A DNA stretch of 47,650 nucleotides from a virus. Its lineage: Duplodnaviria > Heunggongvirae > Uroviricota > Caudoviricetes. The notes under the pieces were generated by a model, which saw nothing but the letters and a program-made list of their open reading frames with translations, was not told the DNA's origin and did no database searches. Position numbers and translations under genes: made by a program. The stretch lies in IMG/VR virus record IMGVR_UViG_2541047798_000009, one strand, 5' to 3'. How positions within the stretch are numbered: position 1 is the first letter of the stretch; each line of letters starts with the position of its first letter. Positions 1,477 through 34,179 of this stretch are shown one piece after another.

Positions 1477-3533
1477 TCCACAACCTCCCCAAGCTGCGCA
1501 TCTGTTAGCTCTTTATGCCAGAGACGAAAATTCCTCACATGCCCAAATAAATGGCGTAATCCTGCTGTAGTTTGTCCACCAATGCGAATGGTTGCTGTAC
1601 TCCGGATATATTCCCATGTGGTTTTTGTTTCGCTGGATATACGCCCGTTACTTACTGCACATGTAGACTGATCTGACTTTACACGCATCCCCATAACCAT
1701 TTTTTTCAACGATGCGTTTTCGTTAACACGCCTATTTGATCCACCAATATCGCAATAAGGAAATCCGTCTGGCCCATCTGCCGAAGATCCGAAGCCAAGA
1801 ATAATAGCCGCTCCGGTTTGATGACCGCCGGTATCAAAAACACGTGGCGCTGCATTTGGCGTTTTATACCAGTTCTTATGTACCTCACAAAGAACCGTAA
1901 AAGGAAGATTATAAAGATTATTCTTAATCGGAACTGTAACCATATCGCTTGCGCGCGTCGCCGCCGTCGTTCCTGATATAATAAAAGATGATACACACGA
2001 ACCATCCTCAACCTGAGGGGTGGCCAGATAAATATAGTCACCAGATTCAACGACACCACCTTTTTTTGGTGCGTATTGTATTGCAGAGGTTATGTAAGTT
2101 TCTTTACTTGCTTGAATCGTTGCCTCTACAAAAATCCAGCCCGTAGCTTCATCTTTGTTAACTCGTGCGGTGAGCCTGTCGGCAGCTACACCGGTGATTT
2201 CAACCAATAAAGACCGCGTATTAACAATGGTATATCCAAGATTAGATGAAGCGCTGCCATCGAAGGCTTCAAACCTGATCCTTAACAGGAGTTCCAAATC
2301 CGTTTTAAATCTGCACGATGTCGTCACACACTTATTATCGCCTGATACATCGACAGCCCCCGAGGTTGAAACTACTGCCATATTAAGGGTTGTACTTTGC
2401 CCAATTAATGATTCATTACAAACAAACTTTCCATAAGTAAAACCAAAACTATCAGTTCCAACCTCAGCGACATTCATATTTGCAGATTTACCCCAAGAAG
2501 CTGGAGTTGCTGAATTCAACATGTAGTTGGTTCGCTGACCTTCAATCAATAAACCTTCTTTTTCAAATCGTGGCTCATTAATTTCCGCCGTTTTCAGTTC
2601 GCCAGATTTGTTGATATATGTTGCCGTTGATGCGCGACTGAAATTAACCTGTTTATCACTGGCAACCTGAACCACATTATCACCAATCTTCACTTTTTTA
2701 TAACCCGGAGAATAGCCCGTAATCATATCCAGCGAATCATTAAAGGGTATCCACACATCCGGCAGCGGCTGTAAAACATATCTGTACGGCTCTGCTGTCT
2801 GGTTTGCGTATTCTCTGGCAGCATCTTCACTTGCTTTTGCTGCCGTCTGGCTTGCTGCCGATGCTTTCGCCGAGTTCGCCGCCGCTGTTTCGCTCACCTT
2901 TGCGTTGGCTTCACTGTCTTTGGCATTCGTCTCACTGGTTTTCGCTGCCGTCTGGCTGGATTTTGCGTTTTTTTCGCTGGCCTTTGTGGCTGTCTCGCTA
3001 TTTTTCGCGCTGGTTTCTGATTTTTTGGCTGCTGTCGCGGAGTTTGCCGATGCAGTCTGCGAGGCCGCTGCCGCCTGTGCGCTGTTAGCTGCATTCGTTT
3101 CTGAGGTTTTCGCCGCATTCTTCGATGAGGCTGCTGCCGTTTCGGATTTCTTTGCCGCCGCTGCACTCTGTGATGACGCTCCGGCATGACGTGCCACTTC
3201 ATTCACCATCAGCTCAAAACGGCGCAGTGCCTCCGGACGAACATCATCCTCCGTCATGGCGCCGAGAAAATCATTCAGCGTACCTGGTCTGGAACCTTCA
3301 TAGACGGTAATGGTCCCGGCATGTGAAGGCGGAAAATCTTCAACCAGCAGGGTGACGCTGTACTGGCCATACTCAACATCCATGCTGTAACGCCCGGCTT
3401 CATCCGGATTTTCAGAGGCCACCGTGTTCACCACCACCGTGCTGCTGGTCCGTCTGGCCTTCAGCACAATGGTGCAGTTCTGTACTGGTTTTCCTGTGCC
3501 ATCTTTAAGCACGCCAGAAATTTTTACTGTCAT
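1473..3533 (-). CDS. stf: Side tail fibre protein (686 aa) with Ala/Ser/Thr-rich repeat tract and C-terminal LamG-like lectin domain
   Basis: N-terminus MTVKISGVLKDGTGKPVQNCTIVLKARRTSS... resembles the lambda Stf N-terminal domain; long SETAAASSKNAAKTSETNA... repeats; C-terminal ...LRHLFGHVRNFRLWHKELTDAQLGEV typical of a LamG jelly-roll. Confidence 0.85.
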   Translation of the reverse strand: MTVKISGVLKDGTGKPVQNCTIVLKARRTSSTVVVNTVASENPDEAGRYSMDVEYGQYSVTLLVEDFPPSHAGTITVYEGSRPGTLNDFLGAMTEDDVRPEALRRFELMVNEVARHAGASSQSAAAAKKSETAAASSKNAAKTSETNAANSAQAAAASQTASANSATAAKKSETSAKNSETATKASEKNAKSSQTAAKTSETNAKDSEANAKVSETAAANSAKASAASQTAAKASEDAAREYANQTAEPYRYVLQPLPDVWIPFNDSLDMITGYSPGYKKVKIGDNVVQVASDKQVNFSRASTATYINKSGELKTAEINEPRFEKEGLLIEGQRTNYMLNSATPASWGKSANMNVAEVGTDSFGFTYGKFVCNESLIGQSTTLNMAVVSTSGAVDVSGDNKCVTTSCRFKTDLELLLRIRFEAFDGSASSNLGYTIVNTRSLLVEITGVAADRLTARVNKDEATGWIFVEATIQASKETYITSAIQYAPKKGGVVESGDYIYLATPQVEDGSCVSSFIISGTTAATRASDMVTVPIKNNLYNLPFTVLCEVHKNWYKTPNAAPRVFDTGGHQTGAAIILGFGSSADGPDGFPYCDIGGSNRRVNENASLKKMVMGMRVKSDQSTCAVSNGRISSETKTTWEYIRSTATIRIGGQTTAGLRHLFGHVRNFRLWHKELTDAQLGEVVE

Positions 3534-3684: not shown

Positions 3685-4284
3685 TCAGAAACGGTATCCG
3701 ATACCAACAATAAATGCATCCGTTCGCCAGTCGCCACTACCGGAACCTTCATAAGCAATATCAATGGTCACGGATTCGGTCGGGTTAAACTGCACGCCAG
3801 CCCCCCACGCCAGAGAGGTATTGCTGTGGCGACCGTCATCACTTCCGGTCAGCACGTCGTGCGTTTTCCCCTTGTTGTCAGTTACGCGGAGATAATCCCC
3901 GGAGAACGTCGACACACGGCTGTAAGCCACACCCACCATCGCATACGCGCTGAACCATTCATTCACGCGTACAGACGGCCCCGCCATTACGCTGAACCAG
4001 CGGTTACGCACGGAATCTTCATGCCAGCGGGTATCGCTGTAATGCGTTTTTTGTTCATCTTCTGCGTCGGCATAACTGAAAGACGTAATCAGCCCCAGCG
4101 TGTCCGTAAACTCATAACGGTATTTCACGTTAATCCCGTTCAGATTATCGCTGCCGGGAGCGTTCGTACGGGCATGAAGATACCCCGCGCTCAGTGTGGA
4201 CTGATGTTCAGACGCCCATGCAGGCGCACCGGATACGGACAGACAGATGGCTGCGGACAAAATGGCTGCACATAATTTACGCAT
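3685..4284 (-). CDS. lom: Lom outer-membrane protein (Ail/OmpX family, 199 aa)
   Basis: Signal peptide MRKLCAAILSAAICLSVSGAPAWA, beta-barrel pattern ending ...GIGYRF; sits between J and stf exactly as in lambda. Confidence 0.9.
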   Translation of the reverse strand: MRKLCAAILSAAICLSVSGAPAWASEHQSTLSAGYLHARTNAPGSDNLNGINVKYRYEFTDTLGLITSFSYADAEDEQKTHYSDTRWHEDSVRNRWFSVMAGPSVRVNEWFSAYAMVGVAYSRVSTFSGDYLRVTDNKGKTHDVLTGSDDGRHSNTSLAWGAGVQFNPTESVTIDIAYEGSGSGDWRTDAFIVGIGYRF

Positions 4285-4351: not shown

Positions 4352-7300
4352 TCAGCTAATCGTGATGCCTGCAGTGGCTTTCTTCATCACAACAACCAGC
4401 AAATCGCTGATACTTGCTGTGGGATACCAGCCATTTACCCACCATGCTGATACAGAAAACTCCAGCGTCATGTCGCCGCGACCAGCAGGCATATCAATAA
4501 CACCACTGTAAACCAGCGTATTATCCATCGCGGTACGGTTATAAATTTCAGCACCGTTTTTCTTCACTATCAGGCGGCATGACGAATAAGTATCGCTGTT
4601 CTCCCGCTCATGTCTGGCACCGCTGAAAGCCACCGCCGGAATAACAATCTGCCGGTTAAACGGCTGATCGTCATAAACCCTGACGGTAATGGTTCCTGAT
4701 GGCCAACGCTTCGGTGCACGGGAGTCACGAGGGAAAGCCTTACCCACTGTTTTAACGAGATCGCCTTCAATCTGGTTTGCAGACAGTTTCCCTCTGATGA
4801 CACAGTTCTCGTTAATGGTGACATTATTGAGCGTGCCGGTATTCGCCGTGATGGCTCCACTGATATCCGCATTGCGGGCTGCCAGCCTGCCATCCGGCGT
4901 CAGGGAAAACGTAGGAGGATTGCCGGATGACGTGATGCTCACCGCAAACAGTCGCTTCAGGAACACGTCGTTCATGAACAGCTGATTCCCCTGCGCCACA
5001 AACAGCGGCGTGGTGTTGCCGTTCTCCGGGGTAATCATCGCAATGCGATCGGCCTGCAGCAGAATGTTACTCAGGGTCTGACCATCAACATCCTCAATCC
5101 CCGCGCCAATCCCGGCCACATAGGGAATACCGTTTTTTGTTTTCTGCACCTTCAGCATATACATGGCATTCAGCTCATTGCGCGTGTCTGACTGAACCCG
5201 CTGGATTTGCTGTATGGTCACGGCCTGGTCACCCAGCTTTTTATCCGTGGTCGAGGTAATTTCACTCCCTTTTTTATCCACGTACTGGCGGACCTGTGCT
5301 ATCTGTCGGGCGTTTTCTGACTGCCCCTGGCTGACAGTCTGTGAGATTTCACTGCTCACCCGGTCCACTTTCTGGCTCACCTGCGCGATGGCCAGTGTCT
5401 GATCCTCATTCTTTTTCGCAACCAGCTGCGTGAGGCTGTTTTCCGCCTTCCCGATTTTCCGGGTCACTTCTGCGATATCCGTGTCCATCCGCTGACGGAT
5501 ATCTTCTTCCAGTTGCGTGACCTCCGTACGCAGCGCTGAAGCATCAATGCGCTCTTTCAGTGCCTGGCCCAGAAGCGTCTCATCTATCAGCCCCCGGAAA
5601 ATTTCCAGATACCCTTCACCATCATTGCTGGGCTGCCCGCTGGCTTCCACAAAAGCAGATTTTCCCACCAGGTTGACGCTTCGCACGTAAAACCAGAAAT
5701 CCGTCCCCGGCTTAATCCGGCTCCCCTGGACAGTCCACTGACTGCCGGTCCCCAGATAACGGGCAGATTTTTCCACCTGTGCTGTGTTCGTGATGCGTTT
5801 TTCTGAGAACCAGAATTCAAACTGTACCGTCGGGTCATACACCGCAAGACGCGGGACCGCCGTTATCTGAAAATACCCCGGCGTCAGCTCAATGGTGGCG
5901 GGTTTTGCAGGTGCGTTAATCCGGAAGGTGGTGGTGGCAGGTTCACCCTGCTGGCCATAGCTGTTTATCGCCCGCACCGTCAGGGTGTATTCCCCGAGCG
6001 GCAGGCCGCTGAAACGGTGCTCCGTGTCTGCGGTGATGGCAGTGGTCACCAGTCTGGCATCCGTTCCCTTACCACTGGTCAGGCGCAGACTGAAGCGCAC
6101 GCCCTTCACCACCCGCGGCGTGTCCCATTTCGCCTGCGCCAGATACTGGCCATCAGCTGCGCTCACCTCCACCGTCAGGTGCTGCACTGCCGGTGGGATA
6201 ACGCTGTTCAGGGTGCCTGACTGCGGCTCAAAGCGGGCACCGTTATCCACGATGGCTTCTTTTTCCGGTACGTGCTGCACCGCCGTGATGGCAAAGGTGC
6301 CGTCCGTGTTTTCCCGGATGGAGACACAGCGGAACAGGCGACGGCGCAGTGACGGCAGGGAGAGTCCCCACACCCCGTATGTCTCCACACCATCAGGCAG
6401 GGTACTGACCTGTATCCGGTCCGGCGCGGGGTGTGCGGTGATGTCCACACTCACCGGCTTACCGCTGCCGTTAATCAGGTTCACCGCTGATGTACCTGTC
6501 TCCGGCAGGGTAACCTCACGGTCCAGCGTCAGGGTGCGGGTGGCAGCATCAATGGACAGGACACGTCCGCCGGTCAGGGTCCCGGCATAGTCATTATCAC
6601 AGATTTCAATAATGTCACCGGGTGTGTGACGCAGCCCCTGTGACCCGAGCGTGAAATCCACCGTCTGCGTTTCCAGCAGTTCGGTCTTTATCACCCACAG
6701 CCCGGCACGGTGGGCCTGACCGCGGCTGGTACAGCCGAACGCGTCCATCTTCAGCAGGTTGCGTCCGTAGCGCAGTATGGCTTCCGGGTCTTCCACCAGT
6801 TCCGTGGAGGTCTGCCAGCCGTTCTGCGGGTCGGTGTAATTCACCTCCACCGCCGTGTGCCGGTCCTTCAGGGCACTGAAGCTGTAGCGGAAACCCACGC
6901 CGTTATCATCCACCACCACATCGCTGCTGGTGTACGGCCACACCACATCCGACGGGCGGTCCTGAACAAACGTCAGCGTCTGACCGTTCCATACCGGCAT
7001 ACAGCGCATCGCAGAGCAGAAATCACTGAGAACGTCCCACGCCTTACGCTGTTGTGCCAGGTACGCATTAAAGGTCATCCGCGGCTCGGTCCCCCCGAAA
7101 CCATCCGGGACCGTCTGGTCGCAGTACTGCCCGATGGCATACAGCGCCCACTTGTCCACATCCGCCACCCCCAGACGTTTTCCCATGCCGTAGCGCGGGT
7201 GAGTCAGCATGTCCCACAGGCACCAGGCCGGGTTGTTGCTGTATGCCGGTTTCAGACTGCCGTCCCAGATACCACTGTACGTGCGTTTTTCCGGGTCATA

Positions 7301-24149: not shown

Positions 24150-24515
24150 TTACAGTCCGATGATGTCGTCCGCTCTGCCACTACCTCCGGACACCTCCGG
24201 CAGCGTCGGGTCCGGCATACCACCCGCCGCTTCACGAGCAGACTTTTGTCGATGGCATTCGGTACAGAGCGTCCAGAGATTCGTCTCCTCATTACCACCA
24301 CCGAACTGAAGTGCAATTCGGTGATCAAGTTCACTGTCACAGAGGTCAACCACACGACCACAGATACAGCACTGCCCGGCGTCCCTGAGCCAGATATGAC
24401 GCTTGAGGGAAACACGTGCACTGCCACTGACACGACGCTGCTCCCCCTTCAGAATATTCACCCGTCGGGTATTCAGTGTTTTGATTCTGCTCTGGAGTGT
24501 ACGAAGCTGAGCCAT
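24150..24515 (-). CDS. HNH endonuclease (121 aa)
   Basis: HNH motif ...CCICGRVVDLCDSELDHRIALQFGGGNEETNLWTLCTECHRQK; sits next to cos and terminase as in HK97-like phages. Confidence 0.85.
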   Translation of the reverse strand: MAQLRTLQSRIKTLNTRRVNILKGEQRRVSGSARVSLKRHIWLRDAGQCCICGRVVDLCDSELDHRIALQFGGGNEETNLWTLCTECHRQKSAREAAGGMPDPTLPEVSGGSGRADDIIGL

Positions 24516-24556
24516 GTAAAATCCCCGTCATATGGCAATCAGTAAAGGAAATAAAT

Positions 24557-24748
24557 ATGTCATCGAAAAACCGGACCCGCAGAACCACAACCCGCAATAT
24601 CCGTTTCCCCAATCACATGATTGAACAGATCAACATCGCCCTTGAGCATAAAGGATCCGGTAACTTTTCAGCGTGGGTTATTGAAGCCTGCAGGAGAAGG
24701 CTGGCAACAGATGCAACGCATCTGTTGCCCGGCCAGCATGACAAATAA
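24557..24748 (+). CDS. YlcI-like small protein (DUF3950-type, 64 aa)
   Basis: MSSKNRTRRTTTRNIRFPNHMIEQINIALEHKGSGNFSAWVIEACRRRL resembles DLP12 YlcI as recalled from memory. Confidence 0.55.
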   Translation: MSSKNRTRRTTTRNIRFPNHMIEQINIALEHKGSGNFSAWVIEACRRRLATDATHLLPGQHDK

Positions 24749-24889
24749 CGAGAAATGAACGTTCGGTTACAGGAGCAGGTACCCACTGTCCTCCAACAAT
24801 ATTTCATCTTCATATCCGACGGAACAAGACTTACCCTGCCGGGATGTACAGAATAACAACAGAGTGATAATTAATTTCTGATGAAATAA

Positions 24890-25231
24890 TCAGGGTGCAG
24901 AAGGACTAAAGATAAACGTTTTCTTCACGCCTTTACACGGCCTGTCCTTCTCAAATCGCCATTTTGCCATCGCCTTTACAACCTGCTCATCAAACAAATG
25001 GTGCGGCTCTGAACGGATAAACTCAATTCGGGTGACAGTACCATCAGCACCAATATCAAACTTCACATCAACCCGTCCCTTTATATAATTTGCCGCTGCA
25101 TAGGCCGGATATTGTGGTAATGCCTTAACCAACTGTCGGGGCATATCTGTTTTATGTTGCGTACAGCCCATAACCAGAGAAGACAACAAAATAATTAACG
25201 GAAGATTTCTTTTCATTTTCATTCCCGGCAC
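24890..25231 (-). CDS. Lipoprotein with TonB C-terminal-like domain (about 110 aa; likely start at 25216-25222)
   Basis: Lipobox LVMGC after a signal peptide; C-terminal YPAYAAANYIKGRVDVKFDIGADGTVTRIEFIRSEPHHLFDEQVVKAMAKWRF fits the TonB_C pattern. Confidence 0.6.
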   Translation of the reverse strand: MPGMKMKRNLPLIILLSSLVMGCTQHKTDMPRQLVKALPQYPAYAAANYIKGRVDVKFDIGADGTVTRIEFIRSEPHHLFDEQVVKAMAKWRFEKDRPCKGVKKTFIFSPSAP

Positions 25232-25554
25232 AGATAAGAATAAGTCTTATTCTAACAATGCCACCCTGTCGATCATTAATCCTCTGCTTAATGGCAACGA
25301 CAATTATCCGGCTTAAATCACAAATCAGACACATGACATAACAGGGCTTGCGAGGTAACACATCGTCCGGTTTCTTCCACCATCGCACCGGACCAGCGAC
25401 CATGAGGGGACAACGCCGCGCTCCGTTAACGCGGTAAACCCCGGTGTGTATCGTTTTTGATTATCCCCGCACACTCGCGCAGAGGAGTCTCCCTGTCGGG
25501 CTGCGGTCTCTGTTAATGCGGGGATACGGCGACAATACCGCGCATCAGCAAAAC

Positions 25555-26022
25555 TTATTTCAGGCACTGAGTGCGGATATATTCCTGCGCCACTTCCAGC
25601 TGCTTCTGCATCAGCATCAACCGCTCTCTGAGAGTGAAATAATCCCGTTCAGCGGTGTCTGCCAGTCGGGGGCCGGTTGCATTATCCACGCCGGAGGTGC
25701 CGGTGGCTTCACGCACGGTACCGGGGCAGGTGGCGTTGATCCGCAGGCGCTTACGACCAGCGGCAACATCAGCGCGCAGAGTTTCATTTTCAGCTCTCGC
25801 ATCGGCTAATTCCCTCGAGTATCTGGCATCAAGTGCAGCAACATCACGCTGGCGCTGCTGCATATCAGTAATGGTTGCATTTGCCAGCTCCAGCTCTCTG
25901 GCTTTTTTATCGCGCTGCGCTTTGTAAGTGATGGCGTTATCGCGGTAATGATTCAGCCCCAGACTAAGCGCACCACAGGCCACCAGCAGAGCAATGATGA
26001 CCACACACAGAACGCGGTTCAT
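25555..26022 (-). CDS. Rz: Rz i-spanin (155 aa)
   Basis: N-terminal TM segment then coiled-coil periplasmic domain; immediately after the endolysin; contains embedded Rz1. Confidence 0.85.
25617..25787 (-). CDS. Rz1: Rz1 o-spanin lipoprotein embedded in Rz in the +1 frame (about 56 aa)
   Basis: [17 protein letters not shown] lipobox followed by a proline-rich sequence, entirely inside Rz. Confidence 0.8.
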
Positions 26023-26358
26023 TTCACCACCAACGGATTGCCCAGATCAGAACAGCAATGGCTATAATACGAATGGCAAAGGCTGCCGCTCTTGTTAAAT
26101 CCAGACAGGCTGGCGTCTCCACTTCAATGCCTTTCATAATGGACAACCTCAGAAAGAATCTTTTATACTTCCTCACAGGGAAAGCACCTCCCTCACCATA
26201 ATTTCTCCCTTGCCTTACTCAAGGTCAGAAAACACAAAACCCCGCTTGCAGCCAACAAACGGGGTTTTTACTTTTATTCACTTAGTTTTTGTCAGTTCGC
26301 AGGATTTCGTGTTATCCGCCCGCGTGGTCATTCCTCATTTTTCAGCAAAATATTCTGC

Positions 26359-30800: not shown

Positions 30801-31398
30801 GAATCCTCCCGGCCGGGATAATATTGTGAGTAAAATAAGGAGCGGGCTGAAGTCCGGAAGTTACAGGACAATGGCAGAAGAGAGACGACAGCCCGCAATT
30901 CGAAAAAGACCGCGCAGTTGCGCAGAGTGATTACTATGGGGTATTATTCGTCAGCTGAAATATTACTTCACGTTTTATTGTTTATTCCTTGCCGCCCGCG
31001 TCTCCCAGCGCGGGCTTTTTTTGTCCATAAGAAAGCCCCTCCGGAGAGGGGCTGGAGAGTGGCGCTATGTGCCATTGCATGATGCCGGGTGCCTCCCGGT
31101 GAGTTCAGCCCGGTGACACTGAACCCGCGTCATTCTCGTTTTGATAATCAGAGATTATACCATCACCAGTCGCCCCTCCGCTCAGGGGGATTCACCATGC
31201 CGTTCTCTTTTAACAAATTCGCCGCTAACAGGACAACATTCCGCTTTCTGAGTTGTGAGGAATTTAACACTTCACACCTGTGTGCATTTTCTACAGGCTG
31301 ATCCCAGCACCACAATACATCGCAGGCAACAGAAGCCAAATGCCCCACCACAGAAAAAACATGCAATTATGATTATTGTTTACTGCAAAGATGTAGAA

Positions 31399-31827
31399 TC
31401 ACGGTTTAAAATCCAGCACTCCATTGTGAAATACTTTATATACTTCCGGAGACGGCGGAACTGGTATATCAGCATGCTTCACCGCATTCATCGCTTCACG
31501 ACATAAATCGGGGTCTCCACCTTCTCTTTTAACCTGTAGCAGAAGACCATTCGGGGCCATATACATTCTCAGTGAACACTCTTTTCCTGAATACTTACTC
31601 GCATCCTTTAACTGTTCTTCTATGGCTTTCCTGACCTGAATGGCATACTGCCTGATTTCTTCACTGGCATCAGGGGTACGTTCCGATGAGCTCAAATTTT
31701 GCGACTTTATTAATTTATCTGAGTGATACAGAGAAGCATCATAATTATTTGTCGATACATCTTTTGTGCAGCCAGTTGTCAGACTGGCTAATATCAAAAC
31801 AAGAACTGGTACAGCACGGCAATACAT
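31399..31827 (-). CDS. Lipoprotein of unknown function (142 aa; possible TolA/TonB C-terminal-like fold)
   Basis: Signal peptide with lipobox LTTGC; occupies the slot between the tRNAs and the esterase where stx sits in Stx phages. Confidence 0.5.
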   Translation of the reverse strand: MYCRAVPVLVLILASLTTGCTKDVSTNNYDASLYHSDKLIKSQNLSSSERTPDASEEIRQYAIQVRKAIEEQLKDASKYSGKECSLRMYMAPNGLLLQVKREGGDPDLCREAMNAVKHADIPVPPSPEVYKVFHNGVLDFKP

Positions 31828-32646: not shown

Positions 32647-33096
32647 AAAAACCCGCTCGACGGCGGGTTTAAGCTGTGTGACGAAGTAACCACTCTTAAC
32701 AGCATAACCAATTTTTTACGTACGTAAACTACTAAATGATATTTGTGAGAATGCCACCGAGTGTTCAAAACACCACCACAAATACATAAGAAAACCTCAA
32801 CAAATAACCAATGAATAATTTCCGATGTTATTTTTAGGTTGTTTAAATTAAGCCAAAAAATTATAGGGCGCTTATAAATAAGTGTCATTAATATAAATTA
32901 GCTAATAGATTTATTTTTGTTCAAACAAGAGCCATGAATAGGATTAGATAGAAAAGGTTCAGATAAAAATAGAGATCTACGTCACAAATTAAATGAGAAA
33001 CTAAAACTTACATCTTGAAATAATCACATTGATTAGATGAATATTTATCGCGCAGTGACATCATTTTTTTATAATAGTTCAAAAAAAGGGCGTACA

Positions 33097-34179
33097 ATGA
33101 AAAAATTAACAGTGGCAATTTCTGCTGTAGCTGCATCAGTACTGATGGCGATGTCTGCTCAGGCAGCTGAAATTTATAATAAAGACAGTAACAAGCTGGA
33201 TCTATACGGGAAAGTTAATGCCAAGCACTACTTCTCCTCTAATGATGCAGATGATGGTGATACTACTTATGCTCGTCTTGGCTTCAAAGGTGAAACCCAA
33301 ATCAACGATCAACTGACTGGTTTCGGTCAGTGGGAATATGACTTCAAAGGCAACCGTGCTGAATCTCAAGGTTCTTCCAAAGACAAAACCCGTCTTGCAT
33401 TTGCAGGCCTGAAATTTGGTGATTACGGCTCAATCGATTACGGTCGTAACTACGGTGTAGCATACGACATCGGTGCGTGGACTGACGTTCTGCCAGAATT
33501 CGGTGGTGATACCTGGACCCAGACAGATGTGTTCATGACTGGCCGCACTACTGGTGTTGCAACTTATCGTAACAACGACTTCTTTGGTCTGGTCGATGGC
33601 CTGAACTTTGCTGCTCAGTATCAGGGTAAAAATGACCGCACTGACGTAACTGAAGCCAATGGTGATGGTTTCGGTTTCTCCACTACTTATGAGTATGAAG
33701 GATTCGGCGTGGGTGCAACCTATGCTAAATCAGATCGCACTGACGGTCAGGTCGCCTATGGTAAGAGCAAATTCAATGCCTCCGGCAAAAATGCGGAAGT
33801 ATGGGCTGCAGGCCTGAAATATGATGCGAACAATATCTATCTGGCTACCACATATTCTGAAACTCAGAATATGACCGTTTTTGGTAATAACCATATTGCA
33901 AACAAAGCACAAAACTTTGAAGCAGTAGCACAATATCAGTTTGACTTCGGTCTGCGCCCATCTGTTGCTTACCTTCAGTCAAAAGGTAAAGACCTTGGTG
34001 TTCATGGTGACCGAGACTTAGTCAAGTATGTCGATGTCGGTGCTACTTACTACTTTAATAAAAACATGTCCACTTTTGTTGATTACAAAATCAACTTAAT
34101 TGACGATAGTAAGTTTACCAAAACAGCTGGTATTGATACCGACGACATCGTCGCTGTAGGTCTGGTTTATCAGTTCTAA
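33097..34179 (+). CDS. Outer-membrane porin (OmpC/OmpF/NmpC/Lc family, 361 aa)
   Basis: Signal peptide [23 protein letters not shown] then [23 protein letters not shown]... and C-terminal ...[11 protein letters not shown]-rich promoter region upstream; antisense to late transcription as nmpC is in DLP12. Confidence 0.9.

Follow-up and report, generated by a model that had tools for sequence, protein, structure and literature searches.

The window analysed here, the whole 47,650-nucleotide (nt) stretch of IMG/VR record IMGVR_UViG_2541047798_000009, is a lambdoid prophage of E. coli with packaging genes of the HK97 type. Downstream of its spanin genes and on the same strand lies a small gene for a lipoprotein whose mature part is a TonB C-terminal domain (Table 1). 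Existing annotation of the product stays at the level of the domain ('TonB family protein'), and phage records of the 2001 era name it 'partial tonB-like membrane protein'.

Table 1. Features of the TonB-like gene, its cassette and its surroundings. Positions refer to the window unless a locus is named; a slash marks the predicted signal peptide cleavage site.
Feature	Position	Strand	Remarks
TonB_C lipoprotein coding sequence	24890..25216	(-)	108 amino acids (aa); stop codon 24890-24892; WP_000828068.1 'TonB family protein'; basis: list of open reading frames, PGAP, Pfam/NCBIfam/PDB matches, dN/dS
Signal peptide with lipobox, aa 1-18, MKRNLPLIILLSSLVMG/C	25163..25216	(-)	Cys18 codon 25163-25165; PROSITE-type pattern, invariant Cys
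TonB C-terminal domain, aa 26-108 (E. coli TonB 153-235)	24893..25141	(-)	helix, two strands, helix, strand beta3 (aa 94-103)
Degenerate Fur-box-like palindrome, AGAATAAGACTTATTCT core	25233..25251	(-)	13/19 to GATAATGATAATCATTATC; 17-35 nt upstream of the start codon
Putative Fur boxes of relatives, in locus sequences	L103 327-341; L008 5918-5932; L006 5972-5986; L011 ~5960-5980; L012 ~1605-1630		
Moron cassette with the TonB-like gene, ~645 bp	24720..25364	(-)	boundaries approximate; alignment with YYZ-2008, GC content
Rz i-spanin	25555..26022	(-)	Pfam Phage_lysis 1.7e-49; upstream neighbour on the same strand
Rz1 o-spanin	25617..25802		embedded in Rz; list of open reading frames
DUF3950 (YlcI/YnfO) gene	24557..24748	(+)	convergent; downstream cassette boundary
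Generic conserved lambdoid stretch just downstream of Rz	25365..25554	(-)	~400 phage records, whether or not the TonB-like gene is present
TolA-domain lipoprotein, 142 aa, MYCRAVPVLVLILASLTTG/C	31399..31827	(-)	Pfam TolA 3.8e-23; PDB 1S62 8e-27; GC 42%

The longest open reading frame (ORF) at this position in the ORF list begins with a GTG at 25231 (24890..25231, minus strand, 113 aa), and the gene had originally been placed on this interval. The gene is real; the GTG start is probably wrong. It lies 15 nt too far upstream, and the true start is probably the ATG at 25216, because PGAP uses this codon in a genome identical to the window over the 1-kb stretch compared and because it is conserved in a second allele of the gene, that of phage 21. 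In the phage-21 allele the upstream ATG reads ATA, and a Shine-Dalgarno-like GGGA/AGGA is found 6 nt upstream of the conserved start.

The product sequence begins MKRNLPLIILLSSLVMG/CTQHKTDM-PRQLVKALPQYP, that is, with a signal peptide ending in a lipobox, followed by a short tether and by the domain, which fills the remainder. The lipobox, IILLSSLVMGC (LVMG/C), fits the PROSITE-type lipoprotein pattern in a regular-expression match, and its Cys is invariant in an alignment of 13 family members; the assignment as a lipoprotein made in the original prediction is thus supported. In E. coli, a lipoprotein without Asp at position +2 is directed to the outer membrane's inner leaflet. Residue +2 is Thr in the window protein and T, S or A across alleles, with no Asp, which predicts this location for the window lipoprotein. 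The tether measures ~8-12 residues, and 7 residues separate Cys18 from the first residue aligned to TonB P153.

The same prediction had described the mature part as TonB-like, and domain search and structure prediction both agreed with it. Pfam TonB_C (PF03544) matched with E=1.4e-14 (54.7 bits, cut-off 24.6) and TIGR01352 with E=1.2e-14. When PDB sequences were searched with phmmer, the TonB C-terminal domains of Salmonella and E. coli were retrieved at ~1e-16. The best NCBIfam matches were to the last ~85 positions of enterobacterial TonB equivalogs; their scores of 49-74 bits are far under the whole-protein cut-offs (265-448) because only the C-terminus is present. An ungapped alignment with E. 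coli TonB 153-235 gave 31 identities in 83 positions (37%). TonB residues Y163, P164, F180, G186, F202, W213, E216 and F230 are retained, and Y215 is replaced by F.

An AlphaFold2 model of the protein shows the TonB order of elements (helix, two strands, helix, strand beta3), with predicted local distance difference test (pLDDT) values of 89-95 over the domain. The signal peptide and the tether (pLDDT ~50) are outside the fold. In TonB, beta3 is the strand that pairs with TonB boxes. The top Foldseek match was TonB of the BtuB complex (2GSK_B), with a root-mean-square deviation (rmsd) of 1.0 Å over 76 columns. TonB of the FhuA complex was a close second (2GRX_C; TM score 0.93, rmsd 1.2 Å), and TolA domain III was merely a distant relative. 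The BFVD viral structure library gave no significant match, and no defence-system model of PADLOC matched.

Compared with E. coli TonB (C-terminal ~150-239; 1U07, 2GRX, 2GSK), the window protein thus shares the fold, the sequence at the above identity, the YP motif, the core aromatic residues and beta3. It differs in having no ExbB/ExbD coupling motif, in its predicted anchor in the outer instead of the inner membrane, and in ending at the equivalent of residue 235. The N-terminal transmembrane anchor of TonB is absent, the N-terminus of the 108-aa protein being a predicted cleavable lipoprotein signal peptide; the proline-rich spacer that spans the periplasm is absent as well, since the domain already starts at residue 26. 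Without anchor and spacer the protein cannot transduce ExbB-ExbD energy, and judged by this architecture it is not a TonB energy transducer.

The TonB-like gene was found in 1616 of 5426 complete E. coli genomes (~30%). The window allele (at least 95% identity) accounts for 414 of these and the phage-21 type, with 72% protein identity to the window allele, for ~1200. Stx1a phages, Lys8385Vzw, JLK-2012, ev017 and Perceval carry the gene also. Between the two alleles the ratio of nonsynonymous to synonymous substitution rates (dN/dS) is 0.12 (0.10 for the domain alone) at a near-saturated dS of ~1.4, which indicates that the protein is under purifying selection. The amino-acid differences between the alleles concentrate at the equivalents of TonB 158-165 and in side chains of beta3, the region of contact with the TonB box, as expected if target specificity were being tuned.

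An exhaustive HMMER search brought up short lipoprotein relatives of 107-133 aa with 34-49% identity. Cluster look-up placed relatives in Salmonella (>1000 contigs), Klebsiella, Gibbsiella, Rahnella, Erwinia and Pantoea, and locus searches added Raoultella and Sodalis; all of them are named just 'TonB family protein'. A 5-member family alignment was used for the locus searches, the 13-member one being too divergent. The slot after the spanin genes and before HNH/terS is kept in E. coli, in a Salmonella prophage, in a Klebsiella phage and in a Sodalis prophage, with 40-49% identity of the proteins. The K. aerogenes copy is on an integrase-bearing island.

These data bear on whether the gene is anything other than a decaying, functionless fragment of a captured tonB. 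Such a fragment might cover just the last third of TonB, as this gene does, and some family members in the databases are truncated or frameshifted. A dN/dS of 0.12 at this dS, a lipoprotein signal peptide that was acquired and conserved, intact copies in 1612 E. coli genomes and the conservation in other genera speak against it. Selection and conservation together largely refute this explanation, and it appears hardly tenable.

The gene rides on a cassette. Phage YYZ-2008, otherwise collinear with the window, is without it; in the alignment, homology stops at ~25364 and restarts at ~24720, which delimits the inserted segment. The G+C content (GC) of the cassette is 42.6% (~43% in the gene) compared with 54-58% in the flanking phage genes. 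Present or absent between conserved neighbours and deviant in GC, the TonB-like gene is a moron, and low-GC insertions with such a polymorphism are typical of lysogenic-conversion or exclusion genes. The minus-strand order is Q, tRNAs, a TolA-like gene, nanS-p, holin, lysozyme, Rz/Rz1 and the TonB-like gene, and then, beyond the convergent DUF3950 gene, the HNH endonuclease gene, terS, terL, head and tail genes, J and lom. A consensus scan of 24400-26100 detected no terminator between Rz and the TonB-like gene on the coding strand. Since the scan gave no sigma-70 promoter either, the gene, as far as such motifs can tell, is embedded in the Q-dependent late transcript, and this position makes synthesis of its product probable at least in lytic growth. 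Both E. coli alleles keep a GATAAT hexamer. Rfam had no match in the spacer between Rz and the gene (whole window at the gathering score; 24700-25700 at a permissive threshold).

The ~190 bp that follow Rz are 77-96% identical across ~400 records of lambdoid and Shiga toxin (Stx) phages, whatever comes next, and some records annotate an ORF in this stretch as 'Rz-like spanin' or hypothetical. A role of this segment as regulatory region of the cassette was ruled out, the sequence being generic to lambdoid phages.

In the original prediction the gene stood in the position of bor, in place of it. The first part is correct in so far as the gene occupies the same gap between Rz/Rz1 and the packaging genes; it does so as a separate cassette and on the strand opposite to that of bor, namely the strand of the lysis genes. 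The second part is contradicted by phage 21 and by the chromosome of O25:H4 ST131, where bor/iss and the second TonB-like allele stand side by side, the latter just downstream and on the opposite strand. Because the two co-occur as neighbours in opposite orientation, the cassette is not an allele of bor; bor and the TonB-like gene are independent morons in one permissive gap, not alternatives. No bor or remnant of it was detected in the window by tblastn with phage-21 Bor, nor was there a Bor family match in Pfam. Among 80 IMG/VR loci with the window allele the order was always lysozyme, Rz, TonB-like gene, DUF3950(-), HNH and terS, and bor was present in none. The likeness to lambda Bor/Iss is that of a small outer-membrane lipoprotein encoded by a moron between Rz and the packaging genes; there is no homology. 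Bor and Iss are linked to serum resistance, not to TonB.

The place behind the spanin genes allows a further explanation, in which the product is a lysis or envelope accessory, an outer-membrane lipoprotein that attaches to peptidoglycan or to components of the outer membrane and tunes the timing or completeness of lysis. phrog_1267, labelled 'Rz-like spanin', matches at 6e-43, and four genera keep the gene behind the spanin genes on the same strand. The PHROG label looks derived from this position, though, and Rz and Rz1 of the prophage are both intact. The gene is missing from collinear phages such as YYZ-2008, its product has a globular TonB fold with no C-terminal transmembrane segment, coiled coil or short proline-rich mature part, and the putative Fur boxes and chromosomal copies described below would be unexpected for a lysis gene. 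A lysis accessory is accordingly seen as very unlikely. An i-spanin has an N-terminal transmembrane domain and a coiled coil, an o-spanin is a short proline-rich lipoprotein, and a u-spanin is a lipoprotein with a C-terminal transmembrane domain; the o-spanin gene is embedded in or next to the i-spanin gene. The protein fits none of these three architectures and separate Rz and Rz1 are present, so that identity as a spanin was rejected.

Upstream of the start codon lies a degenerate palindrome resembling a Fur box. Fur-box scores were taken as matches, of 19, to GATAATGATAATCATTATC, with 1000 shuffles as control. In most lineages the spacing of the palindrome is fixed: it lies 28-37 nt upstream of the start codon. 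The highest scores were those of the Sodalis prophage (17/19), Erwinia typographi and Klebsiella sp. R390 (16/19 each), and Raoultella (two species shuffle-tested) and the Salmonella prophage (15/19 each), none of which was reached in 1000 shuffles. R. planticola scored 14/19 (11 of 1000 shuffles), this window 13/19 (40 of 1000) and the phage-21 allele, in which half of the palindrome is lost, 10/19 (844 of 1000). The core TGATAATNATTATCA is perfect in the Salmonella, Klebsiella sp. and R. lignicola copies, and the putative Fur box of Salmonella and Klebsiella reads TGATAATTATTATCA. Of 80 E. coli copies, 75 retain the window palindrome; 14 of 95,264 window positions reach its score and none a higher one. 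The predicted Fur boxes of the relatives would tie the family to the iron/TonB regulon. We infer that Fur was the ancestral repressor of the family, which would have been switched on whenever TonB and its receptors were; in E. coli, the prophage alleles may since have moved towards expression with the late operon.

Perfect matches to the Fur core ~490 bp downstream in some E. coli loci were set aside, as they are in the lambda-type cos region and unrelated to the gene. One of them, GATGATAATCATTATCA, at L022 4812-4832 and in ~12 further loci of E. coli, is a few tens of bases away from a lambda-type cos, on its upstream side; these loci are prophages with lambda-type Nu1/A packaging genes. The cos-side cores are probably unrelated to iron and caution that such palindromes arise for other reasons.

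The reading favoured here, to which a probability of roughly 0.45 is given, is that the outer-membrane-tethered TonB domain competes with TonB and thereby excludes TonB-dependent phages and toxins. The lipid anchor and the tether would hold the docking domain at the periplasmic face of the outer membrane, beside the place where TonB boxes emerge. Its beta3 could then pair with the TonB boxes of transporters (FhuA, FepA, Cir, BtuB and others), or capture those of incoming group B colicins as they emerge, or both. Because it cannot be energised by ExbB-ExbD, the domain would act as a dominant-negative competitor of TonB. The pay-off for the prophage would be the exclusion of TonB-dependent phages of the T1/phi80 type, of colicins and of siderophore-microcins. 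The putative Fur boxes of the relatives imply a promoter of the gene's own, induced by iron starvation, which would be degenerate in the window copy. A mechanism of this kind agrees with all that could be computed and is plausible, with precedents.

Recombinant periplasmic TonB fragments, artificial, soluble and over-produced, were reportedly the subject of work by Howard, Herrmann, Stratilo and Braun in the Journal of Bacteriology (183:5885). As a later article recounts, iron import through the transporters of E. coli is inhibited when the periplasmic domain of TonB is over-produced (Howard et al. 2001, via PMC9841981). The likeness is that of a periplasmic TonB C-terminal domain uncoupled from ExbBD. 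Unlike those fragments, the window protein is natural, predicted to be lipid-anchored, phage-borne and, by its dN/dS, under selection.

A second precedent is provided by Llp of T5 and by Cor of phi80 and N15, small phage lipoproteins of the outer membrane at its inner leaflet, where the window protein is also predicted to be. From the periplasmic side, Llp and Cor target a TonB-dependent transporter and shut out phages and colicin M (for Llp, bioRxiv 10.64898/2026.03.26.714494). According to the same preprint (bioRxiv 10.64898/2026.03.26.714494), T5 Llp is an acylated outer-membrane lipoprotein that binds FhuA at its periplasmic face and stops ferrichrome, colicin M and the phages that depend on FhuA; in vitro, no active complex forms unless Llp is acylated. 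By its prophage context and lipobox the window protein, too, is a phage-encoded lipoprotein, with a predicted outer-membrane location. It has no sequence or fold relationship to Llp or Cor, Pfam finding only TonB_C in it. Llp is specific for FhuA and acts allosterically through the plug, whereas a mimic of the TonB domain could in principle address every TonB box.

Several points weigh against competition at TonB boxes. Three residues of TonB that are implicated in contacts with receptors are altered in the window protein (R158 to K, Q160 to L, R166 to Y); the phage-21 allele has Y at the equivalent of Q160. The window palindrome is marginal when taken alone, and the window copy has no sigma-70 promoter of its own in the consensus scan. 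Transporters can far outnumber TonB, so that a decoy directed at receptors must be abundant. A general blocker of TonB boxes would deprive the host of iron and B12, the relatives seem to be induced exactly in iron starvation, and 30% of E. coli genomes carry the gene despite the cost expected of a blocker. A full-text literature search found no functional study of the protein. Finally, the gene is chromosomal in Raoultella, Klebsiella sp. and Erwinia, where no phage gene lies closer than 6 kb, and these copies hint at a physiological role on the side of the host.

The cost could be reconciled with a TonB-box decoy in more than one way. The shield could be timed to the derepression of the receptors and to the iron-regulated release of toxins by competitors. 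The protein could also be selective for particular TonB boxes, to which the differences between the alleles in the contact region point. Lastly, it could help instead of blocking. FhuD and BtuF reportedly bind the C-terminal domain of TonB, and as a helper or modulator of iron uptake the tethered domain would recruit periplasmic binding proteins or keep transporters primed; it would be induced with the Fur regulon, and the lysogen would gain fitness or virulence under iron limitation. Strong putative Fur boxes whose position is the same across three or more distinct sequence versions, the chromosomal, non-phage copies in the three genera just named, and the fact that the commoner allele adjoins the virulence-associated iss/bor would suit a helper. 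The box is degenerate or lost in both E. coli prophage alleles, however, no iron-uptake genes are linked in any context examined, and the sole experimental precedent for a free TonB domain, as related in PMC9841981, is inhibition. We regard a helper role as unlikely.

The stoichiometry of transporters and TonB also bears on what the domain might bind, as it favours the scarce partner as target. The domain might form heterodimers with host TonB, or bind the periplasmic domain of ExbD, and trap TonB at the outer membrane; with a few hundred TonB molecules trapped, the whole Ton system would be off without saturation of the receptors. In crystals, isolated TonB C-terminal domains are dimers (1IHR, 1QXX and 1U07 among the matches), and the hydrophobic core and aromatic residues are conserved. 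The AlphaFold2 model, on the other hand, fits the monomeric, receptor-bound form of TonB best. The title of PMC3005593, 'The TonB Dimeric Crystal Structures Do Not Exist In Vivo', counts against dimerisation. Sequestration of TonB is considered quite unlikely.

If the decoy model is true, almost one third of E. coli strains, including ST131 and enterohaemorrhagic (EHEC) lineages, carry a modulator of TonB-dependent traffic. The TonB route serves phages of the T1/phi80 type, group B colicins, siderophore-microcins, albomycin and siderophore-conjugated antibiotics such as cefiderocol. The model, if correct, would thus matter when phages are selected for therapy, for interventions that use bacteriocins and for how susceptible strains are to 'Trojan horse' drugs, and domain mimicry of a host energy transducer would join known exclusion strategies such as receptor-blocking lipoproteins.

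The TolA-like gene of the same prophage is of identical design. Its product has a lipobox (LTTG/C), a linker and the complete C-terminal domain of the other envelope energy transducer, residues 54-142 aligning end to end with E. coli TolA domain III (333-421, E=1e-26), and the gene is likewise a low-GC moron. It differs from the TonB-domain lipoprotein in having the domain of TolA and in its location behind Q and the tRNAs, the site of stx in Stx phages. By analogy it could be a decoy for Tol-dependent colicins and filamentous phages. Two lipoproteins of the same design in one prophage make the idea of 'hub mimics' more than a one-off: in temperate phages of enterobacteria, tethered TonB and TolA C-terminal domains would jam both energised import gateways, on which rival phages, colicins and microcins depend, a Fur-controlled TonB mimic would act as shield in iron starvation, and together they would represent a widespread, unrecognised class of broad-spectrum exclusion. 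This wider proposal is possible, if rather doubtful. If true, it could explain why strains are unequally sensitive to colicins, microcins, siderophore-antibiotic conjugates and phages. General linkage of the two lipoproteins was ruled out, as the TolA-domain one is present in just one other deposited phage (mEp460_ev081). Directly downstream of the TolA-like gene, Rfam places a full-length match to the small RNA STnc100 (31023..31229, minus strand, 158 bits, E=1e-35).

Some further observations were made on the prophage. The portal region (17004..19426, minus strand) consists of two ORFs of 353 and 454 aa, and PGAP flags the portal gene as frameshifted in the genome identical to the window over the 1-kb stretch compared; by this flag the prophage may be defective. 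The C-terminus of J is ~50% identical to J of lambda and of 434 and offers no link to FhuA. Adjoining J is the gene for the outer-membrane protein Lom (3685..4284, minus strand, phrog_108 2e-109), a classical lambdoid envelope moron. Between Q and the tRNAs, and on the other strand, there is a gene for an OmpC-type porin (33037..34179, plus strand, Pfam Porin_1 2.5e-151, GC 43%), the third envelope-remodelling moron of the element. An ompC gene is also found near the lysis genes of the ST131 prophage (L102).

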